Virus record (IMG/VR): IMGVR_UViG_3300005393_000308
DNA: 45,353 nt
Direction: 5' to 3' (one strand)
Source of the DNA: a virus
The stretch's first letter is position 1, and every line of letters starts with the position of its first letter. The notes under the pieces were generated by a model. That model ran no database searches. It saw only the letters and a program-made list of their open reading frames with translations, and was not told the DNA's origin. A program made the position numbers and the translations under genes. Below, piece after piece: positions 9,069 to 33,728 of the stretch.

Positions 9069-9177
9069 AGCTATATTATAGCTGTTTTAAAACAAAGGAG
9101 CAACATATGTCCGGAAATATAAATAAGCCGCGCTTTCATCCCACGGCTGAAGCCGTGGGCTTTCCCGCGCAGTTGAT

Positions 9178-9871
9178 GTAAGAACGACTTATCGCCATGG
9201 AGGATTACCATGTCATCCATATAGCGAAGGTAGTATTTAATACCCTTCTCTTCCTTCAACCAGTGGTCAAAATACGTCAGGTAGAAATTAGCCAGGTACT
9301 GCGAGGTATAGTTACCAATTGGTAACCCCTTGCCGCCGGGAATACTGTCAATGATTTCATCCAGGAGCCAGAGAAGTTCTGGATCTTTGAACTTCCTGCG
9401 CAATAGCTGCTTCAAGATAGTGTGATCAACACTGGGGAAGAACTTAGCAACATCCAGCTTTAAGCAGTACTGCGAACCATCCCTGTCGCGCATAAAGGAA
9501 TGTAACATTTTAAGGGCTGCATGAATTCCTCTTCCCTCAATGGCAGCATAAGTATTATGGATAAACGTATTAAGCAAAGTGGGCTTAATGACGTTCATGA
9601 CAGCATGATGCACAATCCTATCGGGATAGTAAGGGAGCTTGTAGATTTCCCGCTCTTTGCCGCCATCGTTAATAATGAATATCTTGTACCTAGAGGTACG
9701 ATAGGTGCGATTGAGCAGTTGCCGTTGGATTTCCAGGAGGTATCTGTCAGGATTCGCGTCCACCATTTTAACTTCAGTATAATAAGATTTGCCCCTACGA
9801 GCCCTGGCGTGGGCTAACCGCAGGTTCTCAACGTCGCAAATCCTGGAATAGAGATTGCCGTATCTACGCAA
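9178..9871 (-). pseudogene. DGR reverse transcriptase, N-terminal part (interrupted by IS605)
   Basis: GKEREIYKLPYYPDRIVHHA, LKLDVAKFFPSVDH, GLPIGNYTSQYLANFYL, YLRYMDD; reconstructed full length about 339 aa. Confidence 0.95.
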
Positions 9872-9967
9872 GCCTTACCTCCAGTTACTTTGTGCCTTTT
9901 CGCCGAGCCTTCGAGTATAGAGCCTACCAGCACGGCTTTTGACAGGCTTATGTTCTGCCAAGAGGCA

Positions 9968-10154
9968 CAGTAGTTATCCGGGTAAACATAGAAAAGCACA
10001 AAGCAAGGTGCCTGCCGATATTCGAGTTCACATTCGAGGCGGTGTAGTTGACATTCAGGCAAAACGCGCCCGTGTTCGACGCGTTAGACCAATTACCCCT
10101 GAAGATCGGAAGGTAGGACGCGTAAAGATTACCGTTGAAGCCGGATAACTACTG
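9968..10154 (-). ncRNA. DGR template RNA: TR (10006-10135) enclosed by a 14-bp inverted repeat
   Basis: 130-bp ungapped match to VR; AAY-rich; CAGTAGTTATCCGG (9968-9981) is the reverse complement of CCGGATAACTACTG (10141-10154). Confidence 0.9.
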
Positions 10155-17378: not shown

Positions 17379-18011
17379 CTATTTACCCCCGAACTCATAC
17401 CCGCAGAAACGGCATACCTTAGCCCGCGCCCGCACCATTTCCGCACACTGCGGACACTCTTTATACTCCACACCGCCCGCCGCCGCGGTCTCCTGAATAA
17501 CACTGACCTCGCGTTCCAACAGCTCCTGTTGGTTCAACATATGACGCTGGTACATTTCCTGCTGCCTTTCAATCTCACCCTCAAACACCTTAATTTCCTT
17601 GTTCAGCTCATCTATTTCCTTATTAAGTTTGTCTATTTCACCCTGCGCAGCCGCCCGCGCCTCTCTCCCCTTTTCAATAGTTACCGCTCCCCACAAGAGC
17701 GACACAATGCCGCCAATAGCTATAAATAAACCAGCTGCAGCTACACCACCACCCTCCCCGGCAAACCCGAGAAACGCAAGTGGTACGCCGACAATAATGG
17801 CCAGCCAGCCAATCACTCTGATCAGTGTCCCTATGAACACCGTAAAAGAACCAGTAAGCTCGAGCGTATCCACCCGCGACTTCTTCTCACCTATAATCTT
17901 TTTCTTATCACGTACTCTCTCCTTCAACTGCTTCATCTTTGCCTCAAATGCCGCGGAAACATCTACAGTCCTGATCAGTTCCTGCAAATCAATCCCTCCC
18001 AATTCTAACAA
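17379..18011 (-). CDS. Membrane protein with C-terminal zinc ribbon
   Basis: Two TM helices, coiled coil, CPQCAE...CRFCGY. Confidence 0.75.
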   Translation of the reverse strand: MLELGGIDLQELIRTVDVSAAFEAKMKQLKERVRDKKKIIGEKKSRVDTLELTGSFTVFIGTLIRVIGWLAIIVGVPLAFLGFAGEGGGVAAAGLFIAIGGIVSLLWGAVTIEKGREARAAAQGEIDKLNKEIDELNKEIKVFEGEIERQQEMYQRHMLNQQELLEREVSVIQETAAAGGVEYKECPQCAEMVRARAKVCRFCGYEFGGK

Positions 18012-18244
18012 GTTATTTCATGCTGCCTATTATTTCTACAATCTCCCGCGTAAATCCTTTTAGCCAGTCTCTACACGAATGCATGGATGTGAATAAAGAT
18101 AGAATTATTTCCTGGAGGGCCTTTTTAAGGGAAAATGTGCAGCCATTTCCTAGAGGGGGTAGGACTACAGCACATGACAAATTGCTGCGTTTGATGCCCA
18201 TCCCGGTTTGAACGCGGCAGGCAAAACAAAGGGAGGTGAATGTA

Positions 18245-18391
18245 ATGGCCCAGTTAACAGTCAAGAAGTGCGTCCGTTGTGGCAGAGAGATTGTTGCTCT
18301 CGTAAGAGAGAGCGAACCTATCTGCCAGCATTGCCAGCCAAAGAGAAAGCAGGGTTTACTGGCCCTGCTTTTTTCTTTGCTGGTTGGGTAG
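18245..18391 (+). CDS. Small zinc-finger protein (48 aa)
   Basis: GGGAGGTG RBS; MAQLTVKKCVRCG...ICQHCQ. Confidence 0.55.
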   Translation: MAQLTVKKCVRCGREIVALVRESEPICQHCQPKRKQGLLALLFSLLVG

Positions 18392-18401
18392 TTTTCTTCT
18401 T

Positions 18402-18771
18402 TCCAGGAGCCTCTCCCGGCGGGGCGGGGGCTTCTGGAGGGGACCCGCCGGGGCAACCGCGTGGTGGAGCGGTAGACCTGGGCAGGGACCCACGGTGTTG
18501 GCTCCGGCCTTGGGGTTGGGGCCACAAGGGAAGCGGTGTAGGTTTTCGGATAGCCGGCACCGCTTGTCCCCGCTTCCGGTTCTGGAGGGTTGCCGGGTTG
18601 ACAAAAGCCCTCTTCCAGCAGGTCCAATCCTATGACCTTAAACTGGGACTGCAATACACTGGGGCAGCTCCAGTGGGCTTAGCGGGCCGTCACTGCTGCG
18701 CTGAGCCGCACTGATACGGTGGAATGGATGAGATGAATACATAGTCTCCTCTGCAATGAAACCGCATCAGT
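18402..18771 (+). ncRNA. Candidate large structured RNA/leader
   Basis: Back-to-back stem-loops with many G-U pairs on the + strand; no credible ORF. Confidence 0.5.
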
Positions 18772-18885
18772 CACCCGGTGAGGGGAGCGCTCCTGTTGCT
18801 GTGTGACCAGGCGCAGGACAGGAGGTAATAGCGACGATGGCGCGAGCTGAGCTGAGAGTCTGAGGCGGAGAAGGAGGTGTTAACT

Positions 18886-19233
18886 ATGTTGAACTGGCTG
18901 AAGGGACTGTGGGCCCGTTTCGCCGCCTTCGTGAAGAAGGTGGTGGAGCGGGTTAAGTCCGTTGCTTTCGCTGTCCTGGAGAAAGGCAAAGACGCGGTTG
19001 CCCAGGCTGCTGTCTGTGTCGCCGCCCAACCTGCTCCTGTAAGAGTGGCGGTAGCGGTAGTGGCTGGGGCGGTGACCGCTGCAGCAGCATTGGCTGTGGC
19101 TAAGGCGGTTGCTGTTCCGGTCCTGTTGGCCGTCCTTATCGTTGTCCTGGCGGGACTCAAGTTCCTGCCTTTCCTCGCCGGGGCGGCTGCGGGCTACTAT
19201 CTCTATCACCTCCACACTAGCATACAGTGCTAG
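18886..19233 (+). CDS. Ala/Val-rich membrane protein
   Basis: AAGGAGG RBS; long hydrophobic C-terminal half. Confidence 0.65.
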   Translation: MLNWLKGLWARFAAFVKKVVERVKSVAFAVLEKGKDAVAQAAVCVAAQPAPVRVAVAVVAGAVTAAAALAVAKAVAVPVLLAVLIVVLAGLKFLPFLAGAAAGYYLYHLHTSIQC

Positions 19234-19342
19234 CGCGGAGGTCCCCGGTTCCGGGGTGTCTCCGGGTCAACAAAAGCGCCCTTCCAGTAATTAAACCTGA
19301 TGAGGCAGGTCTGCCATCCGATCTGCTTAGGGCTATAAGGAG

Positions 19343-20047
19343 GTGATGAGGATGGCAGTTAAGTTTGCGGATGTTGTTGAGGAGCTCCGGGAGCGGTTTC
19401 CGGAGCTGCGGGCTGTCCCCGTGTATGTGGGCAGCTCTGTCTGTCACTTCTATGGCCCCTGCTTCCTGTTTGAACCAGGGGCCGAGCTGGCCGAGAGGTT
19501 GCATGTCTTCTATGGCCAGCTTTTCGAAGAGGCCGACAGCACTCCTGCCATGGGAGTGCTTAGGCAGCAGTTTGAGGGGGTGATGGATATCCTTTCCGCT
19601 GTCCAACCCGGCGTCCACCTGCCGGAGGATATGGACTGGGTGCAGGAGGCGGTAGAGATGGCCGCTCAGCTCCTTGCGGAGATTGGACTGGACCCTGGTG
19701 AGGCTAGCCTGGTGTCCGGCCAGCTGGAGGCTATTGCCTCCCGCATACGGGCTGCTGGCCTGGAGCCCACCGAGGAGGTGGTGGCCGAGTTTATAGTCCT
19801 CCATGAGACCGGTCATTACTTTGACTACCTCAAGACCGGGGATCCAGAGGTCTGGCGATTCCGGGTTAATCTCGCTGTGGTTGACCTGTTGTGTGACGAT
19901 GGTGACCTGGCTGCTGGCTACCGCCAGATGGAGCATGAGGTCAGGGCCGATGAATTTGCCCTGGCTAAGCTGAAGGAACTGTATAGGCCGCGGCGCTCTC
20001 TTCTGGGCGCCGTGTTACGTTTTGTCGGGAAAGGAGGTGACAAGTGA
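19343..20047 (+). CDS. HExxH zinc-metallopeptidase-like protein
   Basis: VLHETGH and HEVRADEFA motifs. Confidence 0.7.
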   Translation: MMRMAVKFADVVEELRERFPELRAVPVYVGSSVCHFYGPCFLFEPGAELAERLHVFYGQLFEEADSTPAMGVLRQQFEGVMDILSAVQPGVHLPEDMDWVQEAVEMAAQLLAEIGLDPGEASLVSGQLEAIASRIRAAGLEPTEEVVAEFIVLHETGHYFDYLKTGDPEVWRFRVNLAVVDLLCDDGDLAAGYRQMEHEVRADEFALAKLKELYRPRRSLLGAVLRFVGKGGDK

Positions 20048-20166
20048 TGAGTGTTGTTGACAATTTGTTTATCGTCTTGCAGGGCTGTCTGAAGATGGCC
20101 ATGCTATGGTCTCCGGCGATTGTTATCGGAGCTATTGTTATTTATATCTTTGAAAGGAGATGAGTA

Positions 20167-20403
20167 GTGATGAAGGATACTTTGTTCTGTTTGTTCCAGG
20201 AGGATATTCGTGAGAAAAAGCAGGCGGCCAGCGGTGCGCGGCACCGGGCTTCCAGGGGCAAAAAGCCGGTGTCTGTTAAGACACCGGCGGACATGATTGA
20301 CGGCCGGACTAAAGCCGGCCGTGCCTACAAAGGCGCTTCCCCGGTCACAGTCTACAGACTGGACCCCCTGACTGGGGAGCTGATCTTTGTAGGGATAGAA
20401 TAG
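20167..20403 (+). CDS. Hypothetical basic protein
   Basis: AAAGGAG RBS; followed by hairpin 20411-20440. Confidence 0.6.
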   Translation: MMKDTLFCLFQEDIREKKQAASGARHRASRGKKPVSVKTPADMIDGRTKAGRAYKGASPVTVYRLDPLTGELIFVGIE

Positions 20404-20479
20404 CACATTTGGCGGCTGCTGTCAATAGATGGCGGCCGCTGTTCTGTCTTATTAATTAAACAAAGGAGGGGATTGATTT

Positions 20480-20917
20480 ATGCTGTCTGTTCTGAAGGAG
20501 TCCGTTGATGTTAAACTACTGGAGGGGCTGGTGTTGAAGCTGGCGGCCAGGATTAAGTCGCCCAAGCCCTGGCCGGATGAGCCGGCTGTCTATGATATGG
20601 CCGGCTTCAGGGTCTGGGTGGGGGTCACACCGGAGCAGGGCTTCCGCCGGGTGGCTGTCACCCATCCCCAGGACCGCAACTGGACTATGGTCCTGGTGGA
20701 CGCCAACCCTGAGAAAGTCAGGGCGGCTGATAGGAAGGTGATGGTTTACCTTTCTGTCGCTGCCCATGCTCAGTCCTGGTGTGTCCGCCGCTATGTGGGT
20801 CAGGTGAGGTTTGGCGGGGTGCGCCCTATCCTGGTGTGGTTTACTTCCCAGAGGAGGCAGACTGCACCGCGTGATGATCGCGCCGGCGCAGTTTCCGCTG
20901 ACGCTTCAGTTCGTTGA
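20480..20917 (+). CDS. Hypothetical protein
   Basis: AAAGGAGG RBS, 145 aa. Confidence 0.6.
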   Translation: MLSVLKESVDVKLLEGLVLKLAARIKSPKPWPDEPAVYDMAGFRVWVGVTPEQGFRRVAVTHPQDRNWTMVLVDANPEKVRAADRKVMVYLSVAAHAQSWCVRRYVGQVRFGGVRPILVWFTSQRRQTAPRDDRAGAVSADASVR

Positions 20918-21074
20918 GCATATCACGGCGGCCGTCCTGGTAGGCCTGGACCTTGATGTACTCTATAACTGTCTTAAGTTCCCGGTCTTTCAGGCGGCCG
21001 TCCTTGCCCATCCGGATGACTGTTCTCCGACTGACTCCCAGTAGCTGTGCTATCTGTTCCACTGTCAGTGTCAT
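20841..21074 (-). CDS. Excisionase/MerR-like HTH DNA-binding protein
   Basis: LTVEQIAQLLGVSRRTVIRMGKDGRL; GGGAGG RBS. Confidence 0.75.
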   Translation of the reverse strand: MTLTVEQIAQLLGVSRRTVIRMGKDGRLKDRELKTVIEYIKVQAYQDGRRDMLNELKRQRKLRRRDHHAVQSASSGK

Positions 21075-21326
21075 CGTATTCCTCCCTGTTTACTCTGTTG
21101 GGTGTCAAAGTGTTGTGTTAGTCCAGTGGACTCGACCGACACTCTGACACTCCTTTCACCCCTCTATAGTATCTCGTTTGACACTGGCAGCCTTGGAACC
21201 CGCGTCGCTATTGGGTTTCTACTGTTTCCAGCAGGTAAACAGAGGAGGGTGTGTCTGTTGGAAAACTGCATGGAGTGTCAGAATGCCGTGTTAGTCCATG
21301 TGTTTAAAGAGCGCTACTGACACTCC
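21066..21326. promoter_or_regulatory. Cluster of TGACAC-core sites (putative operators)
   Basis: CTGACACTCC at 21144 and 21317, inverted at 21272; further TGACAC/GTGTCA cores near 21068, 21102 and 21179. Confidence 0.5.
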
Positions 21327-21391
21327 CCAGCCTTCGGCTACCGGGGTTGTCCGGTAGTAGTACGATAGATTAATACTCAGGAGGTGGCGTT

Positions 21392-21739
21392 ATGCTTATT
21401 CTCTGTCGCGCCGGCGAGCGGGTGGAAGCCGACATTAAGCTCCAGATCACCCGCTCCCGCAAGGGCCTGCCGGAGGGTTGGCTTTGGGCGCCCCAACTGG
21501 CCCCGTCACCGGAACTGTTTAGAGATTACCTCCGGTGGCGGGACCGTGGTGAGTGGCCCGCTAGGTGGCCCGAGTACCGCGAGCGGTTCCTTTCTGAAAT
21601 GCAGGGCACTGTTCCCCGTCGGTATCTGGAGAGGATCCGGCAGAGGCTGGCGGAGGGCAAGACCGTGGCCCTGGCTTGCTTCTGCCGTGATGAGCGGTAC
21701 TGCCACCGGTCTTTGGTGGCAGAGTTGGTGAGGAGATGA
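21392..21739 (+). CDS. DUF488-family protein
   Basis: QLAPSPELF, YRERFLSEM, VALACFC...CHRSLVAE. Confidence 0.8.
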   Translation: MLILCRAGERVEADIKLQITRSRKGLPEGWLWAPQLAPSPELFRDYLRWRDRGEWPARWPEYRERFLSEMQGTVPRRYLERIRQRLAEGKTVALACFCRDERYCHRSLVAELVRR

Positions 21740-21903
21740 TAGAACGAGAAAGAGCGAGATTGGGGGCGTGAGAAGGAGTGTGAGGACACCCCCCAATCTC
21801 ATCGTCCACTTCCGCTTCCTGTTCCCATCCCATTGTCGCCTGCGTGCTGTCCCTCATTTGGCATAGTACGCAGGCTGTACTTTTAATGTATGGAGGTGTC
21901 TGT

Positions 21904-22365
21904 ATGTTTGTAGAGACTGTTGGGGACTTGTGGGATCTTGCCCGTGGTAGTGTGCTGGTTATTACCACTAACGGGTGCATTAACCGCCACGGTGCGTGTG
22001 TCATGGGCCGGGGGATTGCCCTACAGGCGAAGCAGAGGTTTCCCGGTGTCGCCCTGAAGTTGGGTGGTTATATTCGCCAGTACGGGAACCGGTGCTTCAA
22101 CCTTGGGGTGTGGGAAGGGTACCGTCTGGTGTCTTTCCCTGTAAAGCATCAGTGGGACCAGCCGGCGGATCTGGAGCTTATTGAGCGTTCCGCTCGTCAG
22201 TTAGTGGAGATGGCGGATAAGTTTGGCTGGGAGTGTCTCTATATGCCCCGGCCCGGGTGTGGCAATGGAAGATTAAGCTGGAGCCAGGTGCGCCCGGTGC
22301 TGGAGCGTATCCTGGATGAGCGCTTCGTTGTCTCCAGCGGTGTTGGGAGGGGGGTGTTATCGTGA
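21904..22365 (+). CDS. Macro domain (ADP-ribose binding/hydrolase) protein
   Basis: GDLW, VMGRGIALQAKQRFP, SFPVKHQW, MPRPGCGNGRLSW. Confidence 0.88.
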   Translation: MFVETVGDLWDLARGSVLVITTNGCINRHGACVMGRGIALQAKQRFPGVALKLGGYIRQYGNRCFNLGVWEGYRLVSFPVKHQWDQPADLELIERSARQLVEMADKFGWECLYMPRPGCGNGRLSWSQVRPVLERILDERFVVSSGVGRGVLS

Positions 22366-22870
22366 GGATAGCTATCATTGGTACCCGGCGGCCTTCCCGG
22401 GAGATGGCGGAGTTGTGCATAAAGATAGCCGCCGCCTTCCGGGATTTGGGGTGGGGCTTGTCACAGGCAATGCGGATGGGATAGATGGTATTGCTCGTGA
22501 TGTGTGGAGCGAGCGTTACTCCGACAGGGTGACGCTGGTGCTCCCGTGGCCTGACTACAATCGTGATAAGGTGCGCTCCGGGAATCACGTCGTGGTTTAC
22601 CAGGGCCAGCGGGAGTGGCTGGATAGTGTCGTCCGATATCATCCACCGGGTGCATTCTTGAAGCCCGGCGCGGTCGCGTTACACGCCCGCAACTACGGGA
22701 TAGTAGAACTGGCTGACGTTGTTATTGCCTTTCCGAATGATGGAAAGGAGGGCGGCGGCACGGGACAGGGTATAAGGATTGCCCGGGCGCTGGGTAGGGA
22801 GTTGTTTATCCTGCCTGGTGATTTGGACAGGTTGCGTGGGTTTTATGCTTCTCACCGGCCCTTAACTTAA
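22362..22870 (+). CDS. SLOG/DprA-like protein (one base missing in G run near 22453-22456)
   Basis: GTG start MRIAIIGTR in one frame; VTGNADGID...HARNYGIV...GGTGQGI in the other. Confidence 0.78.
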
Positions 22871-22893
22871 GCCAAAGGCCGGTGATTTAGCTT

Positions 22894-23883
22894 ATGATAA
22901 ATATAAAGGAGGTTATGGTTATGTGTAGCAGAAGCCCACATAGCATGAGCGAGTGGCCGATGGGGGCGCTGCCGCCCATCGTGTCTATGAGGGTAACAGG
23001 GGGTACATTTACCTCCCCGTTTGGTCCTGGGTTTAGGTTCCGGGGCAGGGACGCGGATCTGGAGATTGTCTCCGTCCGCCAGGCTTTGATGAAGCTTGAG
23101 CAGGGAGCAATTTCCGTCCCGGTGTTTGTTGTCAGGAAAGGGGATGGCTCGGAAGTGCAGGCCCGGCTGGGGCATGTACTTCTATATGCCGCCCCGCTGA
23201 AGCCGGTGACTGTGGGTACTCTTCGGATTGTGGATCCGGAGACGGAAACTATTTGGAGAGTCTCTGCAGGTGCCCGTGGGATGTTCGCCACTCAGGCGAC
23301 TCCCGATCCGGACCGGCCCGGTACTACGTCCTGGTTCCACTTCCTTGACAGTTTCAACCAGGATGTGACGCCCTATGTCCATACGGCGGTAGCGTCCGTG
23401 GCAGCGGGGCTAATCGGTTTTCCGGTGAGCTCGCTGAAGGCACCACTGGACAACCGTGCCCAGTGTATCACCTGCAAGGCGTTTCGGCGCCTGCGGGGCA
23501 CTGATCAAATACTGGGCGATGCGGAGGCCCAATATGCCTCCCGTAGTACTTCTGTCCAGAGGACCGAGGGACCCTGGGCGGAGGATGCGTTCTGGTGCTC
23601 TGCCAGACAGGAGGTACCGCCGGATGTTGCCCGGTTGGTGCGGGAGCACAACGCTCTTGCCCGGCGAGGATATCACGACCCGGTGCTCCCGCTCGACCGG
23701 GCAGGTGAGGACTGCACTTCCTACCTACATCAGAATACAGGTAGGAAGAAGCGGAACTCACTTCCTCCCTGGGATGTACCGGCCGCGGTTGTCGGCAGTC
23801 CGGTTATCCGCTCCACTGGCGGTCGAACCGTTATCACTTCTCTCGGTGCCCAGTGGGAGGTTTCCGCTTCACTTCCCTTGTAA
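22894..23883 (+). CDS. Hypothetical protein
   Basis: Long ORF with AAAGGAGG RBS near start; scattered Cys motifs. Confidence 0.6.
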   Translation: MINIKEVMVMCSRSPHSMSEWPMGALPPIVSMRVTGGTFTSPFGPGFRFRGRDADLEIVSVRQALMKLEQGAISVPVFVVRKGDGSEVQARLGHVLLYAAPLKPVTVGTLRIVDPETETIWRVSAGARGMFATQATPDPDRPGTTSWFHFLDSFNQDVTPYVHTAVASVAAGLIGFPVSSLKAPLDNRAQCITCKAFRRLRGTDQILGDAEAQYASRSTSVQRTEGPWAEDAFWCSARQEVPPDVARLVREHNALARRGYHDPVLPLDRAGEDCTSYLHQNTGRKKRNSLPPWDVPAAVVGSPVIRSTGGRTVITSLGAQWEVSASLPL

Positions 23884-23980
23884 TCTCTCAATAAGGGAAG
23901 TGATTTAGCTTATGATTATTAAGAATAATGCGCCCTTCGTACTGCTACTACGAAGGGCGATAACCAAGGAGGTATAAGTT

Positions 23981-25165
23981 ATGAAGGATATCACTGCCTA
24001 CTACGGCACCCTTGTTTCCTTCAGTGTCCTCGACGACTTCACGCTTGTCATCTCTCGGGAAGATCCCGCTGGCGAGCAGTGGCGCATCTGGGAGCCTGTC
24101 GGCAAACTCACACCTCCCGGTCTTCGTGAGGTGGTAGTGGAGCAGTTCCCGTCCGCCCCACAGGTGGAGGATCTGGAGGTCGCCGCCGGTGCCCTGCCCG
24201 ATGAGACAGAGCTCCAACCGGACCTGGAAATGCTAGGGGATGGTGACCCGGGCGACCGGATCCTTCCTCTCGATTATATCACCTCCGGGGATCCGGTGCA
24301 AGACCTGGATCTTCAGGAGGACGTGCTCGATCCGGGCATCCGCGAGGACGCTGAATTGCCGTCGATAGACGGCAAGATATATGTGGATTACAACGTCCTT
24401 GCCCAGCGTAACGCCGGGAATCCTTATGGCTCCCGGCACAGCTTCGCCGGGGTGCGCCCGAACTTCGAGTGTACCCGCGGCGGGCAGTGCGCATCATGCG
24501 GGGATGAGTGGAACCCGCCGCCCTGCCAGAGAGCCTGGGATCGCCACCCGGTGTCCTGGGAGGATTCCCAGGTGCGCTCCCTGGGATTCTTCTGGGTGGT
24601 CGGCGTGTTTCCCAGAAGGGTGCGGGCGGGGGCGTTCCGGGACATCCGTACCCGTGACGGTCGGGTAATCTCCGTTCAAATGAAGGAAAACCCGGTGGTA
24701 CTCGTCCGCTGGCTGGACGAGAGTGATCTCCAACCGGGGATCATTGATCCAGTTACTGGTGAGCGCCACGAGCGCTACTCTATTATGCCCGCTTGGGCTT
24801 TGCTGGACGTTGCTACCGGCGAGCCCTTCCGGTATAAAGAGGAAGAGGCTCGCGTAGCGGTCAGCCCGCGCCGCCAGCAGTTTCGTAAGCGCGTGGTTGC
24901 GCGTTTACACAATGATATTTGGGTGGATGGGCTCATTGTTCCCCGCAAGCATCTAAAGGCAGAATGGTGGAAAGTTGATCTCCAGTCCGAATCCGCCACT
25001 GTCCATGTCTCCTACCCTGATAAACGGGTCACCGTTATCTGGGTGGAGATAGTAGATGGTCGTCCGGTTCCGCTTGGCGGGAGCTCGGCAGAGCGCCTGT
25101 TCGCCGCCCAGGCGGTGGACTGGAAGCTCGCCGAGCTGGCCGAGATAAAGGCGGGTGAGCGGTAG
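23981..25165 (+). CDS. Hypothetical protein (acidic N-terminus, Cys cluster)
   Basis: AAGGAGG RBS; CTRGGQCASC...C. Confidence 0.65.
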   Translation: MKDITAYYGTLVSFSVLDDFTLVISREDPAGEQWRIWEPVGKLTPPGLREVVVEQFPSAPQVEDLEVAAGALPDETELQPDLEMLGDGDPGDRILPLDYITSGDPVQDLDLQEDVLDPGIREDAELPSIDGKIYVDYNVLAQRNAGNPYGSRHSFAGVRPNFECTRGGQCASCGDEWNPPPCQRAWDRHPVSWEDSQVRSLGFFWVVGVFPRRVRAGAFRDIRTRDGRVISVQMKENPVVLVRWLDESDLQPGIIDPVTGERHERYSIMPAWALLDVATGEPFRYKEEEARVAVSPRRQQFRKRVVARLHNDIWVDGLIVPRKHLKAEWWKVDLQSESATVHVSYPDKRVTVIWVEIVDGRPVPLGGSSAERLFAAQAVDWKLAELAEIKAGER

Positions 25166-25362
25166 TGCTTACCCGTGAGTATATGGAAGATAAACTCCTT
25201 CAGTGGAATCCTCACTGGAGGATTTCTACAGTCAAAAGTTGGCATAACCGCCAGCTCTACGCTATTTACAGAAAGGAGCAGGCAAAGCTTTTCCCTGGTC
25301 TCACGGTTATTCCTTACAAGCGGTCTGCTCCGCCCTCGGTACAACTTAGCCTGGATCTGTGA
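25165..25362 (+). CDS. Hypothetical protein
   Basis: Coupled start; ends QLSLDL, resembling a beta-clamp-binding motif. Confidence 0.5.
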   Translation: MLTREYMEDKLLQWNPHWRISTVKSWHNRQLYAIYRKEQAKLFPGLTVIPYKRSAPPSVQLSLDL

Positions 25363-25411
25363 TTTAACTGAATCGTGAAAGATATAAAAGATATATAGAG
25401 AGGAGATCGTC

Positions 25412-25789
25412 ATGGAAATCTTGGCTGTAAAGCTTGAGGGTAGGATTTATATTAATACTACCCCGCATCCTATCACTTTCCAAGACTCACAGGGAGGAGT
25501 TGTTACTGTTCCTTCCTGTGGGCATCTGGTTAACGCCCGGCCAATCGAGGAGCCGGCCGGTGGGCGCGATGGCGTTCAGTTTGTTCGTACCCGATTTGAA
25601 GCCGATGAGGCTTCTGTTCGGATATTGAACGAGATCGAGCGCCAGTACCCCGGTGCGTTTATCATCGGCTCTATCATTGCTGCTCAGGCTTTTCCCGGCC
25701 GGGTGTTGGCAATGGTGCCCGTACCGGGATTTGAGCGGGTGCCGCCCGCGGAGAAGCGTATGCGGGTGGACAAGTTTACGGTGTTCTAG
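25412..25789 (+). CDS. Phage hypothetical protein (NxTPH motif)
   Basis: GAGGAG RBS; INTTPHPITF. Confidence 0.65.
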   Translation: MEILAVKLEGRIYINTTPHPITFQDSQGGVVTVPSCGHLVNARPIEEPAGGRDGVQFVRTRFEADEASVRILNEIERQYPGAFIIGSIIAAQAFPGRVLAMVPVPGFERVPPAEKRMRVDKFTVF

Positions 25790-25801
25790 AGGTTTATCTT
25801 G

Positions 25802-25842
25802 GAGCTGTGCAGAATCTACACCCTGCACGGCTCTCTTTTTTT
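25802..25842 (+). terminator. Intrinsic terminator
   Basis: GAGCTGTGCAG...CTGCACGGCTC stem followed by T tract. Confidence 0.7.
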
Positions 25843-25917
25843 ATGCTCCTCGGTCTTGGCTTTAGCAGGCAGTGGCCTGGGGTAATTTTATCTACCAGAT
25901 AAAGGGAGGTTAGGATT

Positions 25918-26139
25918 ATGTATGTAAGGTATTTCAAAAGCGGTGAGGTATTTGCCGCTGAGCATGTGAAGGCAGATACTTCTGCCGTCCGTTACTTTCG
26001 TATTGACGAGGACGGCTTCACTGTCCCTGCTCCGGATTGTGGCCGTCCCGGCCTCACCGGTGAGGAACTTCTTGCCAGTGGCTGGGAGGAAGTTCCCTTT
26101 GCCGAGGTTCGTCAGCTTGTACACGGCTCGCTCCTGTGA
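25918..26139 (+). CDS. Hypothetical protein
   Basis: GGGAGG RBS. Confidence 0.5.
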   Translation: MYVRYFKSGEVFAAEHVKADTSAVRYFRIDEDGFTVPAPDCGRPGLTGEELLASGWEEVPFAEVRQLVHGSLL

Positions 26140-26448
26140 CATCCTCATTTCCTCCGGTCTGCTTAAACTGTCTTCATTACGACATAATACCGCTATTCAT
26201 CTCCTGGTTTTAATCAGGGGCATTCTGGCGGATCTCTTTGTAAAAGGAAGGTGACATTGATGTTTGCTAAGATCTGTCCAAAATGTGGGCAGTGGTTGTT
26301 TTCCGCTGCCCATAACTGCTATTGGGTTTGCTCCTGTTGCGGGACTGACCTGGCGCTTGAACGACTCTATGACTCCTCTGAATACCATTCTGCAGAACAC
26401 GGGGAGCTAGAGATCTTAAACTGAAAGGAGGAGCGCCGTGAAGTCTCG

Positions 26449-26685
26449 ATGAGTAGGTGTCCTTATTGTAATACCTTGTTTGTCCTCCGCCCGGTTGAAA
26501 TCTATATTCCCTGGCGTGACGATACTGGCCCTGTTCGTATTGCCGGCCGGGACGTACAGGAGTATTACTGTCCTGCCTGCGGCTACTCTTCTTTTACCCC
26601 ACAGACCCATGATACGTTCCGCTGGATTATGGACGAGGTTCAGTCCTATGATGCGGAGCGTGTCCCGTATAATGTTCTATGGTGA
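26449..26685 (+). CDS. Zinc-finger protein (YgiT/MqsA-like)
   Basis: CPYC...YYCPACG. Confidence 0.55.
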   Translation: MSRCPYCNTLFVLRPVEIYIPWRDDTGPVRIAGRDVQEYYCPACGYSSFTPQTHDTFRWIMDEVQSYDAERVPYNVLW

Positions 26686-26699
26686 TTTAACTTAGTTGT

Positions 26700-26748
26700 G
26701 ATACAGTGTATGTATCTTATTGACATACACTGTATCCTGTGTTATAGT
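26700..26748 (+). promoter_or_regulatory. SigmaA-type promoter overlapped by a 14-bp inverted repeat operator
   Basis: TTGACA (26720-25), 17-bp spacer, TATAGT (26743-48); GATACAGTGTATGT / ACATACACTGTATC. Confidence 0.8.
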
Positions 26749-26754
26749 TATAGT

Positions 26755-26868
26755 AGATATGAGGCGTCGAGCGGCGCTACTTCGAATATACTTAGGACGA
26801 AGATGACCAGAAACTAAATAGGGCAACCCCTTATTACTATTTGCGTCACTCATAACTTCCTCATATCT
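26755..26868 (+). ncRNA. Candidate Y RNA (Ro60 partner)
   Basis: Starts at the predicted +1; 10-bp terminal stem AGATATGAGG/CCTCATATCT, GUCGAG bulged-helix-like motif, inner stem GAGCGGCGC/GCGTCACTC; directly upstream of the TROVE gene. Confidence 0.65.
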
Positions 26869-26945
26869 GTTAAGTTTAAGTAGTTGGCGGAGCGTAGAGA
26901 TGGGTTACTCTGTTGGTTAAGCCGTATCATCTGTAAGGAGGGAAT

Positions 26946-28439
26946 ATGTCCCGAGCTACCTCTATGTTTTCTTCTGCCGTACCTCGGCCTGATGCTGTGA
27001 ACCGTGATGGCTATCCTGCCTACCAGCGCCCACTGGAGGAGCAGTATCTTCAGGTATTGCTTACCAACACATTGAGTAATACCTTTTATGCCTCCAGTGA
27101 CCAGCTGCTCCAGGAAGTCGAACAGGTGCATGACACAATGCTGGCGGCCGACCCTGAGTTTATGGCCAAAGCCCTTGTCTTTGCTAGGAATGAGGGCTTT
27201 ATGCGGCTCCAGCCTACCTTCGGCCTGGCAAAGTTGGCCGGTGTGCGGCCTGACCTGTTTGCTCAGGTGTTTGATAGGGTTATCGTGATCCCTAGTGACC
27301 TGCAGGACTTTATGACTATTCTGAGTTCCATGGGGCGTGGTGAGGGTGGCCGTGCCGTGAAGCGACAGGTGGCCCGCTGGCTTAATGAAAAGCTGACCGA
27401 GTACTGGGCCATTAAGTATAATGGCCGCGGCAGGGGATACTCGCTGGGCGACATCGTTCGCACTGTTCACCCGAAACCTGCTGGCCCTAAGCAGTCTGCT
27501 CTATTCAAGTATGTAGTTCACGGTGAGGGTGCAGGAGATTTCCTGCCTCAGATACAAGCATATAAGCTACTGAAACAGGCAGATCCCTCTAGCCGTGCTA
27601 CGCTCATCAGTGCAGGTCGCCTGCCCCATGAGGTTGTGACCGCGGTGGGTGATCTGGATAAGGACTGCTGGAGGGCACTTGTTCTGCAGCTGCCTGCCAT
27701 GGCCCTCCTGAGGTATCTGACCGCCCTGGAACGCCGCGGCGTGCTCGATGAGTTTCAGGACTACATCACCACCCGTCTCACAGATCAGATGACTCTTAAG
27801 AACGCTAAGATTTTTCCCTTCCACTTCCTTAAGGCTTTCCAGCAGGTCCAGAAGCCCTGGGTGAAGGACGTTCTCCGGCAGGCTGTAGAGCTGACTGTGG
27901 CCAATATCCCGGAGATTTCTGGCAAGACCGCCATCTTTCTGGATGTGTCTGGATCGATGGGCGGTGGGCCTCTTCTCATCGGATCGGTGTTTGCCCTGGC
28001 CTTATATAAGCGCACAGGCGGCACTGCGCTGTTCTGGGCGTTTGATACTAAGGTTTACGAGCAGTCGCCGAGTATGGTTGATTCGGTCTTGTCGCAGGCC
28101 GAGCGCATCTGCGACCTTGGTGGTACTGATACCAGTGCACCAATACAACGGTTGGCTGACCGCCGCCTGTTTGTCGATAACATTATTATGATCACAGATG
28201 AACAGCAGAATACAGGTTCGCCGTTCTACGGCGCCCTGGCACAGTACCGGCGGAAAGTCAATTCCAAGGCTAAGACGTTCATTGTTGACATTTCATCTTA
28301 CCGTTCAACTATGGTTCCCCTGACTGACTCTCTTACTCACTATATCTTTGGCTGGTCGGATCAGGTGCTGCACTATATCTCCCGGAGTATTCAGGGGTAT
28401 GGCGGTCTGGTTGAGGCCGTCAGATTGATATCACTTTAG
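26946..28439 (+). CDS. rsr: Ro60/Rsr TROVE-domain RNA-binding protein with vWA domain
   Basis: VNRDGYPAY, NTFYAS, FARNEGFMR, IKYNGRG, HPKP, LDVSGSM (MIDAS), GGTD, ITDEQQN. Confidence 0.92.
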   Translation: MSRATSMFSSAVPRPDAVNRDGYPAYQRPLEEQYLQVLLTNTLSNTFYASSDQLLQEVEQVHDTMLAADPEFMAKALVFARNEGFMRLQPTFGLAKLAGVRPDLFAQVFDRVIVIPSDLQDFMTILSSMGRGEGGRAVKRQVARWLNEKLTEYWAIKYNGRGRGYSLGDIVRTVHPKPAGPKQSALFKYVVHGEGAGDFLPQIQAYKLLKQADPSSRATLISAGRLPHEVVTAVGDLDKDCWRALVLQLPAMALLRYLTALERRGVLDEFQDYITTRLTDQMTLKNAKIFPFHFLKAFQQVQKPWVKDVLRQAVELTVANIPEISGKTAIFLDVSGSMGGGPLLIGSVFALALYKRTGGTALFWAFDTKVYEQSPSMVDSVLSQAERICDLGGTDTSAPIQRLADRRLFVDNIIMITDEQQNTGSPFYGALAQYRRKVNSKAKTFIVDISSYRSTMVPLTDSLTHYIFGWSDQVLHYISRSIQGYGGLVEAVRLISL

Positions 28440-28465
28440 CGTTAATTGGAAACACTATCTCTTAT

Positions 28466-28497
28466 AGGTCTAGCTTATTGCTAGACCTTCTTTTTTT
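28466..28497 (+). terminator. Intrinsic terminator
   Basis: AGGTCTAGC-TTATT-GCTAGACCT plus T tract. Confidence 0.85.
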
Positions 28498-28573
28498 GCC
28501 CCAGCAAGTATAACCATAAGTGGCCTGTTAGGTTTCTTACTATGATTCAACATGTATAAGGAGGTATTTTCGT

Positions 28574-29104
28574 ATGATTGATGTGAAGCAGGCTAAGCTG
28601 TTTGGCGGCATTGGAACGATTATGATTATGTTGGGGCCTATTCCGTACATCGGCTGGATAGCTGCTGTTGTAGGTCTTATCCTGCTCGGCATATCGCTGA
28701 GCAATCTTGCTACTGTTACTGGGGACAGGTCCATCTTTACTAACTTTGTTATCTCGCTTGTGGTCGGGATAGTTGGTGGTGTCTTTGTCCTGTTCCTGTT
28801 CTTCGGCGCCGGCCTGACCGGCCTTTCCACCTTGGGCGCCTTAGGTGGCGGGACAACTTATATTCTGTCTGTTATATGTGCCTATTTTATGTCCCGAACG
28901 TATCGTACTCTTGGTACTCGCCTTTCCACTGCTTTGTTTAACACTGCTGCAACTCTTTGCTTCTGGGGTGCGGTCGGAATACTTGCCTTTGGCATTGGCC
29001 TCGTAGCTATCCTGGTTGCCAACATTCTTCTGATCGTAGCGTTCTTCTCCATCCCGGACAGCCTGCCGTCTGTTATCATTGGAAATGATTTAACTCAGGA
29101 TTGA
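28574..29104 (+). CDS. DUF996-like membrane protein
   Basis: AKLFGGIG N-terminus, several TM helices, VAFFSIP C-terminus. Confidence 0.75.
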   Translation: MIDVKQAKLFGGIGTIMIMLGPIPYIGWIAAVVGLILLGISLSNLATVTGDRSIFTNFVISLVVGIVGGVFVLFLFFGAGLTGLSTLGALGGGTTYILSVICAYFMSRTYRTLGTRLSTALFNTAATLCFWGAVGILAFGIGLVAILVANILLIVAFFSIPDSLPSVIIGNDLTQD

Positions 29105-29125
29105 AAATATGTCAAGGAGGTCGAA

Positions 29126-29621
29126 ATGATGAACAGCAAGACTATCGTTGTACTCGGGCGTGTGGGTAATGTACGGGTGTTCGATGGGGAAGATGGCCGT
29201 AAAACGGTAGTTTTCGGCGTGGCTGTTGATCAGCCCAGACGTGGCGAACAGGCGGAAGGCGAGCAGAAGCCGCCGGCTGTGTGGACGTCGTTTAGAGCGG
29301 TTAACGGGACAGCCGAGATGTTGGCCCAGTACCTGACCAAGGGCCGGCTGGTACATGTTCGTGGGTACCAGCCCGCGGCTCCGCCAGTACGAGACCTTGC
29401 GTACCATTAACATTAAGGGTGTGGGTAATGTCCAGTTTAAGGACGTCCAGACGGCGGAAGAGTACATCGTCGTAGACTTCAAGTTCGCCGACGCCCCGCG
29501 GAGCGATGCAGATGGACAGCTGGTCGGTGAGGTTGTTGCCGGTGAGCCTGCTGGTGCTGCCAGCGGCGACGCTGAGGTCTCATCCGCTGCAATGTTTGAT
29601 CTTAAAGATATTCCCTTTTAA
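29126..29621 (+). CDS. ssb: Single-stranded DNA-binding protein (+1 frameshift near 29372)
   Basis: VVLGRVG, AEMLAQYLTKGRLVHVRG, acidic tail ending DIPF; frames join as GYQPRLRQY. Confidence 0.85.
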
Positions 29622-29637
29622 GGTTTCCAGCCGTTAC

Positions 29638-29668
29638 GGGTCGGGGCAATCCCGGCCCAATTCTTTTG
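29638..29668 (+). terminator. Probable intrinsic terminator
   Basis: GGGTCGGG-GCAAT-CCCGGCCC plus TTCTTTT. Confidence 0.55.
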
Positions 29669-29682
29669 ATAGAGGTGATAGT

Positions 29683-29898
29683 TTGTCCAGGTTGATTCCT
29701 GCCGCCTTGAGCTTTATCCTGCCCGGCTTGGGTCAGCTTTATAATGGCCATACACGTAAGGCTATCGCCCTGGGCGTTGCCGTGCTGGCCTCTCACCTTG
29801 TCCCTGTAGCTCCTCTTTCTGCTGCTGTGAGGCTTGGCGCCTGGGCGTATGGCATCTGTGATGCGTATAGATGCGGATCTAAGAATGGGATACAGTGA
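29683..29898 (+). CDS. Small membrane protein (PGLGQLYNG motif)
   Basis: LSFILPGLGQLYNG...ICDAY; TTG start after GAGGTG. Confidence 0.6.
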   Translation: MSRLIPAALSFILPGLGQLYNGHTRKAIALGVAVLASHLVPVAPLSAAVRLGAWAYGICDAYRCGSKNGIQ

Positions 29899-29967
29899 TT
29901 TAACCTACTGGTTGACATTGTGTCCCAATATAGTATATTATATGTTTGATCGATTAAGGAGGTGGCA

Positions 29968-30993
29968 ATGGTGTACGTTAACCAGGCTAAGAGACATTTG
30001 GCCGCTTTGATCCAGAGAGACGGCGTGCCACCGATCATGCTCTGGTCTGCCCCGGGATGCGGTAAGAGCAGTATAGTCAAGCAGGTGGCGCAGGAAGCAG
30101 GCATTGGCCTCATCGACGTGCGCCTGCTGTATTTTAATCCAATAGACCTGCGCGGCATCCCGCGGGCTAACCCGGAGACGAAGGTGACCGAGTGGTACCT
30201 GCCTGACTTTCTGCCTAGAGTGGAGCGTGACGGCGAGCGGGGTATCCTGTTTCTTGATGAACTTCCTGCTGCTCCGCCGGCTACTCAGGCGGCCAGTTAC
30301 CAGCTTACCCTGGATAGGAAGATCGGTGATTACGAGCTACCTACCGGCTGGAAAGTGGTGGCCGCTGGCAACCGAATGACCGACCGGGCCGTTACCCACC
30401 GCATGCCAAGTCCCCTGGCTAACCGCATGCTTCACTTTGATCTGGATGTTTCGCTGGATGACTGGAAGGAATGGGCTATCGACGCTGGTGTCCACCCTAC
30501 TGTAATTGCTTTTCTTTCCTTTCGGCCGGAACTGCTGTACAAGTTTCCCGATGGGGCACCCGAGATCAAGGGTTTCCCGACGCCCCGCTCCTGGGAGTTT
30601 GTTTCTAGTCTGATCGGTGAGATTGGCGACAGCTATGAGCTTGCCGCCAGCGCTGTGGGCGAGGGGGCGGCGCTTGAGTTTATGACCTTCAAGAAGACTG
30701 CTGACAAACTACCCTCGCCGGAGAAGATCATCGACGGTGAGCAGGATTTCAAACCTGACAGTCCCGACTTGATGTATGCTCTTTCCAGCGGTCTGGTCTC
30801 TTATATTATGGTGAACTTCACCAAACCCAGGGTCACCCGTCTGTTTGACTATATCTCCTTTGCCCTGCCGGTGGAGTTTCAGACCCTGGTGATAACTGAC
30901 CTGCTCCGCACTAAATACCATGCTAAACTGTACTCGCTGCAGCCATTTTTGAAGTGGGCTAAAGACAATGCGTTTATTATTAATGCGGCGTAG
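29968..30993 (+). CDS. MoxR-like AAA+ ATPase
   Basis: APGCGKS Walker A, LFLDE Walker B, VAAGNR, PLANR, PTPRSW. Confidence 0.92.
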   Translation: MVYVNQAKRHLAALIQRDGVPPIMLWSAPGCGKSSIVKQVAQEAGIGLIDVRLLYFNPIDLRGIPRANPETKVTEWYLPDFLPRVERDGERGILFLDELPAAPPATQAASYQLTLDRKIGDYELPTGWKVVAAGNRMTDRAVTHRMPSPLANRMLHFDLDVSLDDWKEWAIDAGVHPTVIAFLSFRPELLYKFPDGAPEIKGFPTPRSWEFVSSLIGEIGDSYELAASAVGEGAALEFMTFKKTADKLPSPEKIIDGEQDFKPDSPDLMYALSSGLVSYIMVNFTKPRVTRLFDYISFALPVEFQTLVITDLLRTKYHAKLYSLQPFLKWAKDNAFIINAA

Positions 30994-31306
30994 CGGCTGG
31001 CCCCATGGAGGTAGTGGTTTGCCTTACTACGAACTTATCTTGTTTGAGATTCCCGATAGCCTTACTCTTGACTTGGTTGTTGCTATCCTTAAGCTTCACA
31101 ACCTGTATGTCCTTGATTATGGCAATAGCGTCCTCTACTCATATATCCACTTATCGTTTGAACCTGGCTTTGAGTCAAGGTGCAAGTCTGTCCTTCGTGA
31201 TCTATTTGGCGCTGATCCTGGGTTATCCTGGTTTCTGTTTACTCGGACTAAGCCGGTTGCTTTTTAGGTGTAGTGAGACTCCTCGTGACTAAGGAGGTGC
31301 TAGTTT

Positions 31307-32452
31307 ATGTCTGCTACGGCACCGCAACAGATGATCTCGGCTGCCCGTACTCAGCTTGTCCTGCGGCGGCCCTTTTTCGGTACGCTAGCTTTGCATATGC
31401 CAGTAGTGGAATCTGTGTCTATTCCAACAGCCGCTACGGACGGCCGGTCTCTCCTTTACAATCCTGCTTTTGTTGAGTGGATTGTAAAGCAACATCAGCT
31501 GGCCGGCTTACAGACTATTATTGCTCATGAAGTAATGCATGCTGCTCTCCACCACTGTTTCCGCCGTGGTAGCCGTAAGCCCATTCTCTGGAATGTAGCT
31601 ACTGACCTGGCAGTGAATGACCTGCTACGACAAAGTGGATTCTCTATTCTGCCTGGTATGCTCTATGACCGGCGCTTTGCGGATATGTCTGCGGAAGCTG
31701 TCTATGATCTGCTTCAGAAAGATCCTGGCTGCCGGGTATCTGTCTTGCAGTCTGCCGGGAGTAGTAGTGATAACAGCGGTGATCATTCTCTATGGGGTAA
31801 CAGCCAGAGCGCCGCCGACCTTGAGGCTCAGTGGAAGACCGCCCTTTCCAGAGCTGTCCAGGCTCAGAAGATGTCTTCAGGTCACGGCAGTCTACCTGGT
31901 GTGCTGGAGCGACTCATAGAGGATATCCTCTATCCTCGCCTTGACTGGCGTCAGGTGTTGGCTTCATTTCTCCAGCCCGTTAAGGCTGATTACAGTTTTC
32001 TGTCTCCAGACAGACGGTTCGATGATATCTTTCTGCCAGACTTCAACGTGGATTCCGTTGAGGAGGTGGTAGTAGCTATTGATACATCGGGTTCCACCTA
32101 TAAGTGTGTGTCTGCCTTCCTTGCTGAGGTTCGTGGTATTCTCGCCTCCTTCCCACAGGTGAGTGGGTATCTTGTCCAGTGTGATGCCCAGATTCAGGAT
32201 TGGCAGCCGCTGGATGAGTACGAGCTGCGGTCTGCTAAACTTAAGGGCTTCGGCGGCACCGACTTTAGACCTGTATTTGAGGAAATTGATAAAAGAGGCA
32301 TTGATCCTACTGCTCTTGTCTACCTGACCGACGGCTATGGTTATTATCCCGCCCACCAGCCCCACTATCCTGTCCTGTGGGTGCTCACCTGCGAGCCGAC
32401 GGATGGCTACCATCCTCCGTTTGGTCAGGTGATTCAGCTTAACCTTGGGTAG
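31307..32452 (+). CDS. Metallopeptidase-like + vWA protein (DUF2201 type), MoxR partner
   Basis: TAATDG, HEVMH, WNVATD, IDTSGS, GGTDF, YLTDG. Confidence 0.9.
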   Translation: MSATAPQQMISAARTQLVLRRPFFGTLALHMPVVESVSIPTAATDGRSLLYNPAFVEWIVKQHQLAGLQTIIAHEVMHAALHHCFRRGSRKPILWNVATDLAVNDLLRQSGFSILPGMLYDRRFADMSAEAVYDLLQKDPGCRVSVLQSAGSSSDNSGDHSLWGNSQSAADLEAQWKTALSRAVQAQKMSSGHGSLPGVLERLIEDILYPRLDWRQVLASFLQPVKADYSFLSPDRRFDDIFLPDFNVDSVEEVVVAIDTSGSTYKCVSAFLAEVRGILASFPQVSGYLVQCDAQIQDWQPLDEYELRSAKLKGFGGTDFRPVFEEIDKRGIDPTALVYLTDGYGYYPAHQPHYPVLWVLTCEPTDGYHPPFGQVIQLNLG

Positions 32453-32467
32453 TTATACAGGGAAGGG

Positions 32468-33631: not shown

Positions 33632-33728
33632 GCATATAAAGTCTAGGAGTGGAGGTGTTTATTGTATGTGGTGATTTAGCCTGAAGATTGCCGTTAATTA
33701 ATTAAACCAAGAAAAGGAGGTAGTTATT

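Follow-up and report, generated by a model that had tools for sequence, protein, structure and literature searches.

A repeated hairpin-pseudoknot-like module in a candidate structured mRNA leader of an uncultured giant phage

Introduction

In the lambdoid phage HK022, the put RNA is a cis-acting antiterminator that binds the β′ zinc-binding domain of the polymerase transcribing it and suppresses pausing and termination. A different use of RNA structure is found in the messenger RNA (mRNA) of T4 gene 32, in which a leader pseudoknot nucleates binding of the gene's own single-stranded-DNA-binding protein, a case of translational autoregulation; between this pseudoknot and the ribosome-binding site (RBS) the RNA is an unstructured A/U-rich run. 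The type III antitoxin RNAs (ToxI, CptI) are tandem pseudoknotted repeats of 36–45 nucleotides (nt), placed directly upstream of an endoribonuclease toxin gene. The two HK022 elements, putL and putR, are ~70 nt each, share sequence and contain a minor-groove triplex, and putR lies ~270 nt from the start site (PMC9378689). Here we describe a run of back-to-back hairpins at positions 18402–18771 of a 45,353-nt window of DNA from an uncultured giant phage (IMG/VR record IMGVR_UViG_3300005393_000308; all positions refer to this window), together with a 44-nt, H-type pseudoknot-like motif that is found within the run and once more downstream of it. A preliminary description had proposed that the run is either a novel phage non-coding RNA (ncRNA) or an antitermination leader. 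We instead propose a cis-acting, structured and untranslated mRNA leader (or intercistronic spacer) carrying a repeated hairpin-pseudoknot module, which would be a probable site for a common regulator; we place the probability of this reading at about 0.45.

The locus shares features with several described systems and departs from each of them. For a leader pseudoknot that binds a protein, the T4 gene 32 leader would be the closest mechanistic parallel: in both cases a phage mRNA has an H-type pseudoknot, here a predicted one, in its 5′ leader. However, the RNA downstream of our motif is G-rich and structured, and the genes that follow encode an orphan membrane protein and an orphan protein of 231 amino acids (aa). 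With the preQ1, SAM-II/V and guanidine-III riboswitches the motif has in common a length in the 35–55 nt range, two short H-type stems, an A-rich loop 3 of the kind that lines a groove, and a 5′ leader position. On the other hand, the Rfam models of these riboswitches gave no match, even at E values up to 10; ACGR-type and other signature loops are absent from the motif by eye, neither a terminator nor an RBS-sequestering helix adjoins it, and the downstream genes have no metabolite link. As for the type III toxin-antitoxin systems, the likeness lies in a repeat unit of ~45 nt, its pseudoknot potential and a phage-defence setting, whereas here the copies are set 669 nt apart, on either side of a gene, and TRF finds no tandem array. 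No ToxN-, CptN-, TenpN- or AbiE-like domains were detected in the neighbouring proteins.

Results

The motif occurs exactly twice in the 45 kilobases (kb) of the window, at 18575–18618 (copy A) and 19244–19287 (copy B), in both cases on the + strand and between genes; the expected number is 0. A covariance model of the motif (R1), run over the window, returned only these two copies, with 68.6 bits for copy A and 68.1 bits for copy B, and the next best match reached 12 bits. The copies are identical at 34 of 44 positions (~77%), while their flanks cannot be aligned. From 5′ to 3′ the layout comprises the first strand of stem S1 (5 nt), loop 1 (4 nt), the first strand of stem S2 (7 nt), loop 2 (2 nt), the second strand of S1 (5 nt), loop 3 (9 nt) and the second strand of S2 (7 nt). 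S1 is thus a helix of 5 base pairs (bp), YCCGG/CCGGG, that joins 18575–18579 to 18593–18597 in copy A and 19244–19248 to 19262–19266 in copy B; S2, of 7 bp, has the form GGRGKGU/GCSCYCU and joins 18584–18590 to 18607–18613 in copy A and 19253–19259 to 19276–19282 in copy B. Loop 3 is A-rich in each copy (UUGACAAAA in A, UCAACAAAA in B).

Some of the differences between the copies are compensatory. Five of the ten fall in the two helices, and all five preserve pairing: in S1 a one-sided change turns a U-G pair of copy A into a C-G pair of copy B, and in S2 (GGAGGGU/GCCCUCU in copy A, GGGGUGU/GCGCCCU in copy B) an A-U pair becomes G-C and a G-C pair becomes U-G, both by double-sided changes. The pseudoknot model therefore keeps 12 of 12 pairs, with two double-sided changes and one that is one-sided. 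In slid-register controls, pairing was 50–67% and there were no double changes; furthermore, the nested minimum-energy fold of copy A loses four pairs in copy B. When ten random substitutions were simulated, survival of all 12 pairs had a probability of 0.005, and survival together with at least two compensations a probability of 0.0008. Judged from these sequence comparisons, the motif appears to be the sole element of the stretch that shows signs of selection. Copy B has G-U at three of its seven S2 pairs, so that this stem can form only in RNA of the + strand.

The last point bears upon the possibility that the stretch functions as DNA, for example through operator or iteron sites, as an origin prone to R-loops or G-quadruplexes at the switch in gene orientation and GC skew, or as a promoter for a phage polymerase. 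The cumulative GC skew does have its minimum at 17–18 kb, and the − strand of the hairpin run also outdoes its shuffles in folding (see below). There is also a loose G-quadruplex pattern at 18421–18453. In addition, the window contains four copies of the pattern TYCTRGAGGG, beginning at 18110, 18148, 18432 and 18580; they share the + strand and a span of 480 nt, so that 18110–18589 contains every copy in a single orientation. The expected number is 0.46 and none of 100 shuffles reached four, for a pattern that was defined after its copies had been seen. A divergent promoter gap holds the first two copies (ATTTCCTRGAGGG), which are spaced by 38 nt; the fourth is located within motif copy A. TYCTRGAGGG could be an operator or protein-binding site. 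Nevertheless, the compensatory changes and the G-U pairs of the 7-bp stem fit + strand RNA rather than duplex DNA or a protein half-site, the skew switch is accounted for by the change in gene orientation, and we found neither an AT-rich unwinding element nor regular iteron spacing. A strict G-quadruplex (loops of at most 7 nt) was sought in the stretch by pattern search and none was found, so this idea was rejected. We consider a DNA-level element highly improbable.

Another characteristic of the motif is its constant partner: each copy is preceded, at a distance of 1–4 nt, by a strong hairpin. For copy A this is the third hairpin of the run (18528–18570, + strand, loop UUCGGAU; −23.3 kcal/mol, z −4.16); for copy B it is a hairpin at 19208–19242 (+ strand; −20.7 kcal/mol, z −5.82) that spans the stop codon of the intervening gene, which encodes a 115-aa protein. 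The two hairpins share no sequence. Together, hairpin and motif make up a module of ~80–90 nt, at 18528–18618 and 19208–19287. Copy A is separated by ~265 nt from the position at which the 115-aa gene starts. Copy B lies in an ordinary 118-nt intergenic leader: it starts 10 nt past the UAG that ends the 115-aa gene, and 64 nt separate it from the ATG of the 231-aa gene. The 5′ strand of the third hairpin (GGAAGCGG) could alternatively pair with CCGCUUCC, which overlaps S1, although such a switch is indistinguishable from chance. We also note that the loop-3 hexamers GUUGAC (18598–18603) and GUCAAC (19267–19272) are exact reverse complements, with a duplex energy of −8.5 kcal/mol; this may reflect a long-range kissing contact that bridges the 115-aa gene, or a coincidence (~1 in 9, given the shared outer bases). 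Two further interpretations of the motif were discarded. A sigma-70 promoter built on the TTGACA of copy A would lack a suitably spaced −10 element, and copy B does not retain the TTGACA. A stimulator of stop-codon read-through or frameshifting is equally unsuitable: no open reading frame (ORF) ends upstream of copy A, and read-through would add 18 codons only.

The presence of two sequence-related, compact and structured copies (~45–90 nt) on early-looking phage transcripts, one of them a few hundred nt in, recalls putL and putR, and the A-rich loop 3 could form minor-groove triples. HK022 put would be the nearest functional analogue for the idea of a processive antitermination leader, whereby a put-like module binds its own polymerase, which then reads through terminators, and the second copy re-arms it. 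Terminator-like sites are indeed about twice as frequent as expected in the 20–29 kb region (18, versus 9.0 ± 2.7). However, these downstream sites are mostly weak and have poor T-runs; the candidates nearest the stretch are 19989–20014 and 20410–20441, the latter being the best. The several downstream intrinsic terminators of the preliminary description belong largely to these weak matches. The strongest terminator-like hairpin of the area, at 18334–18383, is instead upstream of both copies, beyond the reach of any RNA made from the stretch. This long hairpin has 21-nt arms that are 81% complementary (−32.5 kcal/mol, z −5.45) and a GCAGGG/CCCTGC core followed by a T-run; it is assigned to neither strand, being terminator-like on both because its A-tract pairs with its T-tract. 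Moreover, put consists of two stem-loops, with one copy behind each of two separate promoters, whereas our copies lie 669 nt apart on one strand and have the form of a hairpin plus a pseudoknot-like motif, the hairpins having no sequence in common; the motif does not present itself as a ~70-nt pair of adjacent stem-loops in which each stem resembles its counterpart in the other copy. With few and weak sites downstream, we find the earlier suggestion of an antitermination leader unsupported and view it as quite unlikely.

We next turn to the run as a whole. The six stems of the preliminary description are all present in both the minimum-energy and the centroid folds computed with ViennaRNA (z-scores are relative to shuffled sequence). 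Besides the third hairpin, they are, all on the + strand, hairpin 1 (18402–18438, ~16 pairs including G-U; −27.8 kcal/mol, z −3.74), hairpin 2 (18499–18526, GGCUCCGGCC paired with GGUUGGGGCC; −19.0 kcal/mol, z −2.97), hairpin 4 (18657–18675; −10.0 kcal/mol, z −2.94), hairpin 5 (18676–18707; −17.0 kcal/mol, z −2.27) and the branched, AU-richer hairpin 6 (18710–18771; −17.7 kcal/mol, z −2.54). A seventh, at 18790–18824 (+ strand; −21.3 kcal/mol, z −2.7), lies beyond the run as first delimited. As the stems had been selected beforehand, their individual z-scores are inflated. Over 18402–18771 the + strand folds at −182.6 kcal/mol (z −3.61) and the − strand at −151.9 kcal/mol (z −2.68), and in neither case did any of 100 shuffles equal the value; over 18392–18880 the + strand reaches −236.5 kcal/mol (z −4.66), as compared to a z of −2.15 for the − strand. 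G-U pairs make up 19 of the 127 centroid pairs of 18402–18771. The stems had been described as rich in G-U pairs that work only on the + strand; we confirm that this strand is preferred, by ~31 kcal/mol, but not that it is the exclusive one, given the z of −2.68 for its complement.

The stretch is non-coding, in agreement with the preliminary description, which had seen no convincing ORF. Codon log-odds are negative in all six frames (−0.2 to −0.02), whereas in-frame segments taken from genes of this phage score 0.23 ± 0.06, with none under 0.09. Protein searches with the long ORFs disclosed no real relatives: none for a 213-aa ORF that crosses the stretch on the − strand, and one low-complexity match only, among 1.84 billion representatives, for a 168-aa ORF on the + strand. 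We therefore reject coding ORFs across the gap. Nor was an RNA family recognised, as had been reported at the outset. A scan of the whole window with Rfam 15 at the gathering score found nothing in the stretch, its sole match being an RT-17 RNA at 9888–9972 on the − strand (41.9 bits, cutoff 40.4); this RNA is directly upstream of a reverse transcriptase gene at 9071–9871. A search of 18000–19500 with E values up to 10 gave only noise, namely microRNA and long non-coding RNA models at 12–22 bits against cutoffs of 38–190. The models covered included put-like RNAs, pseudoknot riboswitches, the large structured phage RNAs ROOL and GOLLD, HEARO/omega RNA, Y RNA and T-box. A tRNA or tmRNA was rejected for the stretch, as was an orphan omega RNA or any other repeat of the window, the latter in part through the same permissive Rfam search.

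Strong + strand folding without coding potential, directly after a terminator-like hairpin, could be taken to describe a free-standing ncRNA of several hundred nt that has its own promoter, perhaps for a phage polymerase, and that acts in trans, whether as a protein sponge, as an anti-defence decoy or otherwise. We found neither a sigma-70-like promoter nor a U-tract terminator bounding the stretch, in a scan that was restricted to sigma-70 and is blind to the promoters of phage polymerases, which giant phages possess. The lack of a 3′ terminator before the next gene argues against such an RNA, as does the lack of an Rfam match, large structured families included. A sponge of the CsrB/RsmZ type can be rejected: GGA motifs number 11 in the stretch, versus 9.0 ± 2.1 in shuffles, and merely three of them are in unpaired stretches, unlike a CsrA-type sponge. 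Also contrary to a free-standing RNA is the recurrence of the motif in an ordinary intergenic leader. The excess of folding is, moreover, not local: it is common to the next 7.5 kb of coding sequence. Thus the earlier suggestion of a discrete, 370-nt ncRNA gene is not upheld, and we judge a trans-acting ncRNA of any similar kind very unlikely.

This regional excess of hairpins is striking in its extent. In 240-nt sliding windows compared with dinucleotide shuffles, the + strand has z-scores of about −3 to −6 across 18.2–26.4 kb, ORFs included, as against means of about −0.6 over 26–45 kb and −0.5 over 12–18 kb. Local folds of 50 nt tell the same story: energies of −18 kcal/mol or lower were obtained for 44% of windows in the gap at 18392–18876 and 26% in the coding part of the block, as compared to 4% elsewhere in the window. 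After correction for GC content the gap and the coding part are alike (residuals of −2.18 and −2.22, respectively), the residual elsewhere being ~0 or above. Gene by gene, the excess begins at a 48-aa ORF just upstream of the stretch and ends past the ORF at 25918–26139, and the best eight 485-nt windows are all within 18.2–26.1 kb. Under a null in which codons were permuted within each window, the genes of the block have a mean z of −3.5 (n = 15), in contrast to −0.7 (n = 21) for the control genes Ro60, MoxR, DUF2201 and SNF2; since it survives this null, the excess is not an artefact of codon periodicity. Short inverted repeats number 39 in the block versus 18 in a control stretch of equal length. 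The block (18236–26139, + strand) has a GC content of 55–61% and mostly orphan genes, and stops just short of a Ro60/Y RNA unit. The hairpin run is therefore real, yet it is not a local peculiarity: it forms the untranslated start of an 8-kb island whose sense strand is dense in hairpins. We read the sense strand of the block as having been selected, or mutationally biased, for dense local pairing. As the excess spans the block, genes included, an RNA gene cannot be recognised here by its folding energy alone.

The same data raise the possibility that the stretch has no specific function, being a spacer or the remnant of a decayed gene whose hairpins are a by-product of the block, with at most the motif functional. 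The equivalence of gap and coding sequence in GC-corrected folding, the confinement of the best windows to the block and the behaviour of its genes under the codon-permutation null would all be anticipated from such a spacer, as would the failure of the searches made to find relatives, an Rfam match or bounding signals. On the other hand, 494 nt is long for a gap in a compact phage operon, no frame has kept a coding signal, the motif within it appears to be under selection, and the fourfold TYCTRGAGGG is confined to this locality. We regard a spacer or remnant as rather unlikely.

With respect to the genomic setting, the stretch is indeed at the head of a rightward gene block, as the preliminary description had it. 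Leftward genes, which encode a 210-aa zinc-ribbon/membrane protein and a 502-aa DUF2325/phrog_11092 protein, stop at 18011; a divergent gap of 224 nt follows, and all genes beyond it run rightward. The first of these is the 48-aa zinc-ribbon ORF (18245–18391, + strand), which has a strong RBS (GGGAGGTG), a Pfam zf-FPG_IleRS match of 22.7 bits that is just over the cutoff of 21.3, and a weakly positive coding score of 0.08; the terminator-like hairpin overlaps its last codons and 3′ end. From there to the next ATG extends an untranslated stretch of 494 nt (18392–18885, + strand; 36% G), among the longest intergenic gaps of the window, of which the hairpin run is the core. The gene that follows (18886–19233, + strand; coding score 0.18) encodes the 115-aa protein, an Ala/Val-rich membrane protein for which family searches gave no match. 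Its RBS (GAAGGAGGTG, 18870–18879) is open, the last 60 nt upstream of the gene being locally unstructured (local z +0.36). Within the leader we also read an eight-codon upstream ORF, MARAELRV*, at 18837–18863 (+ strand), whose end is 22 nt short of the 115-aa gene's ATG; its AGGAGG (18820–18825) is buried in the 3′ arm of the hairpin at 18790–18824. The 231-aa orphan gene (19352–20047, + strand; coding score 0.33) had its start placed by the N-terminus of a relative, P0002 (MAVKFADV). No Pfam or PHROG model matches its product, in which HETGH and, further along, EVRADEFA are by eye reminiscent of metallopeptidases of the ImmA/IrrE type (M78).

Relatives of the locus proved scarce. A blastn comparison of the DNA with phage records found none, and the motif pattern had no matches in viral contigs or in genome contigs; its four matches in metagenome contigs were dismissed as chance, all being inside coding sequence and lacking the upstream half of the motif. 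The 231/234-aa protein has two relatives among 5.8 billion proteins, and the 502-aa protein has three, but no related loci could be reached through the neighbouring proteins in viral or metagenome contigs. In genome contigs the 502-aa protein has two distant homologues (32–37% identity), one in Syntrophomonas palmitatica JCM 14374 (locus L006, 10001–11467) and one in a Clostridiales metagenome-assembled genome (locus L005, 1044–2507). Both adjoin a conserved protein of ~180 aa, in a gene neighbourhood that is otherwise different and from which the motif is absent. These homologues hint at the lineage of the phage's host. The covariance model R1, applied to 125 genomes of the class to which Syntrophomonas palmitatica belongs, gave a single 26-bit match, antisense inside a 321-aa gene, that we attribute to chance.

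Several other signals were noted further along the window. A − strand promoter-like site, TTGACA-17-TATTCT with a TG (20425–20397), faces a − strand terminator-like hairpin (20288–20265, followed by TTTTT); from the sequence, a ~110-nt antisense RNA could be made inside the 78-aa gene at 20167–20403 (region 20258–20425). The pattern RTGATTYARCY has eight exact copies between 22882 and 33671, all on the + strand, and 17 when one mismatch is allowed (22882–33681), against 8.4 expected. It is not found near the stretch, and therefore the head of the block uses different signals. The Ro60 gene (TROVE + vWA; 26946–28439) is preceded by a near-consensus promoter, TTGACA-17-TATAGT with a TG, at 26720–26748. 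Y RNA families gave no match in the window at the Rfam gathering score.

Discussion

We envisage that a rightward mRNA would contain a leader extending from the hairpin that closes the 48-aa gene to the start of the 115-aa gene. The open RBS of that gene and the absence of bounding signals are as expected of a leader, and we infer that the stretch is transcribed as part of such an mRNA. Its dense pairing would shield a long, untranslated, G-rich and C-poor RNA from RNases and from the loading of Rho. The functional part of the leader would be the strong hairpin together with the 44-nt H-type pseudoknot that immediately follows it, one such module being in the leader and the other before the next gene. 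The pairing model leads us to expect that the pseudoknot forms and that a factor would bind it: both copies would be sites for one trans-acting factor, which might be a protein of the phage or of its host, RNA polymerase or a small ligand. Such a factor would co-regulate the two downstream genes once transcription has begun, at the level of translation, processing or stability or, less likely, termination.

A number of considerations weigh against this proposal. The covariation comes from two sequences of one genome and is hence thin; the pseudoknot model was chosen after both copies had been seen, and the shuffle control has no power on two rows (139 of 500 shuffles scored as high). Nor do nearest-neighbour energies favour the pseudoknot: even with no pseudoknot penalty applied, its stems amount to about −6 to −8 and −10 kcal/mol, whereas the nested folds reach −16.6 kcal/mol for copy A and −12.9 kcal/mol for copy B. 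Each motif alone folds like its shuffles (z −0.6 and −0.1). Because the hairpin excess is block-wide, the other five stems of the run may lack a specific role. Finally, the upstream terminator-like hairpin could halt transcripts short of the stretch, and we found no promoter after it.

Taken on its sequence features, the stretch would be an orphan instance of a structured phage mRNA leader or cis-regulatory motif, ordinary-looking but for one intriguing repeat. A bolder view, that the hairpin-pseudoknot module represents a new class of phage cis-regulatory RNA (a put-like modifier of polymerase, or a switch or site for a protein or ligand) heading an 8-kb early or counter-defence operon with a structure-shaped mRNA, is in our opinion unlikely. 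If it is a real regulatory RNA, the module would add an orphan motif from giant phages of Clostridia-like hosts, a lineage that has hardly been sampled, and it could reveal how an early block of counter-defence-looking genes is timed. The hairpin-dense island may be the more interesting lead: an 8-kb, sense-specific excess of hairpins that treats coding and non-coding sequence alike is the broader and less expected observation. On the bolder view above, the entire operon mRNA would owe its dense pairing to, for example, the need to survive host or phage RNases or RNA-targeting defences. Should selection for mRNA structure be responsible, it would bear upon how phage transcripts escape RNA-directed host defences or the RNA decay machinery of the phage itself, in a genome in which the Ro60-Y RNA unit is encoded just downstream.

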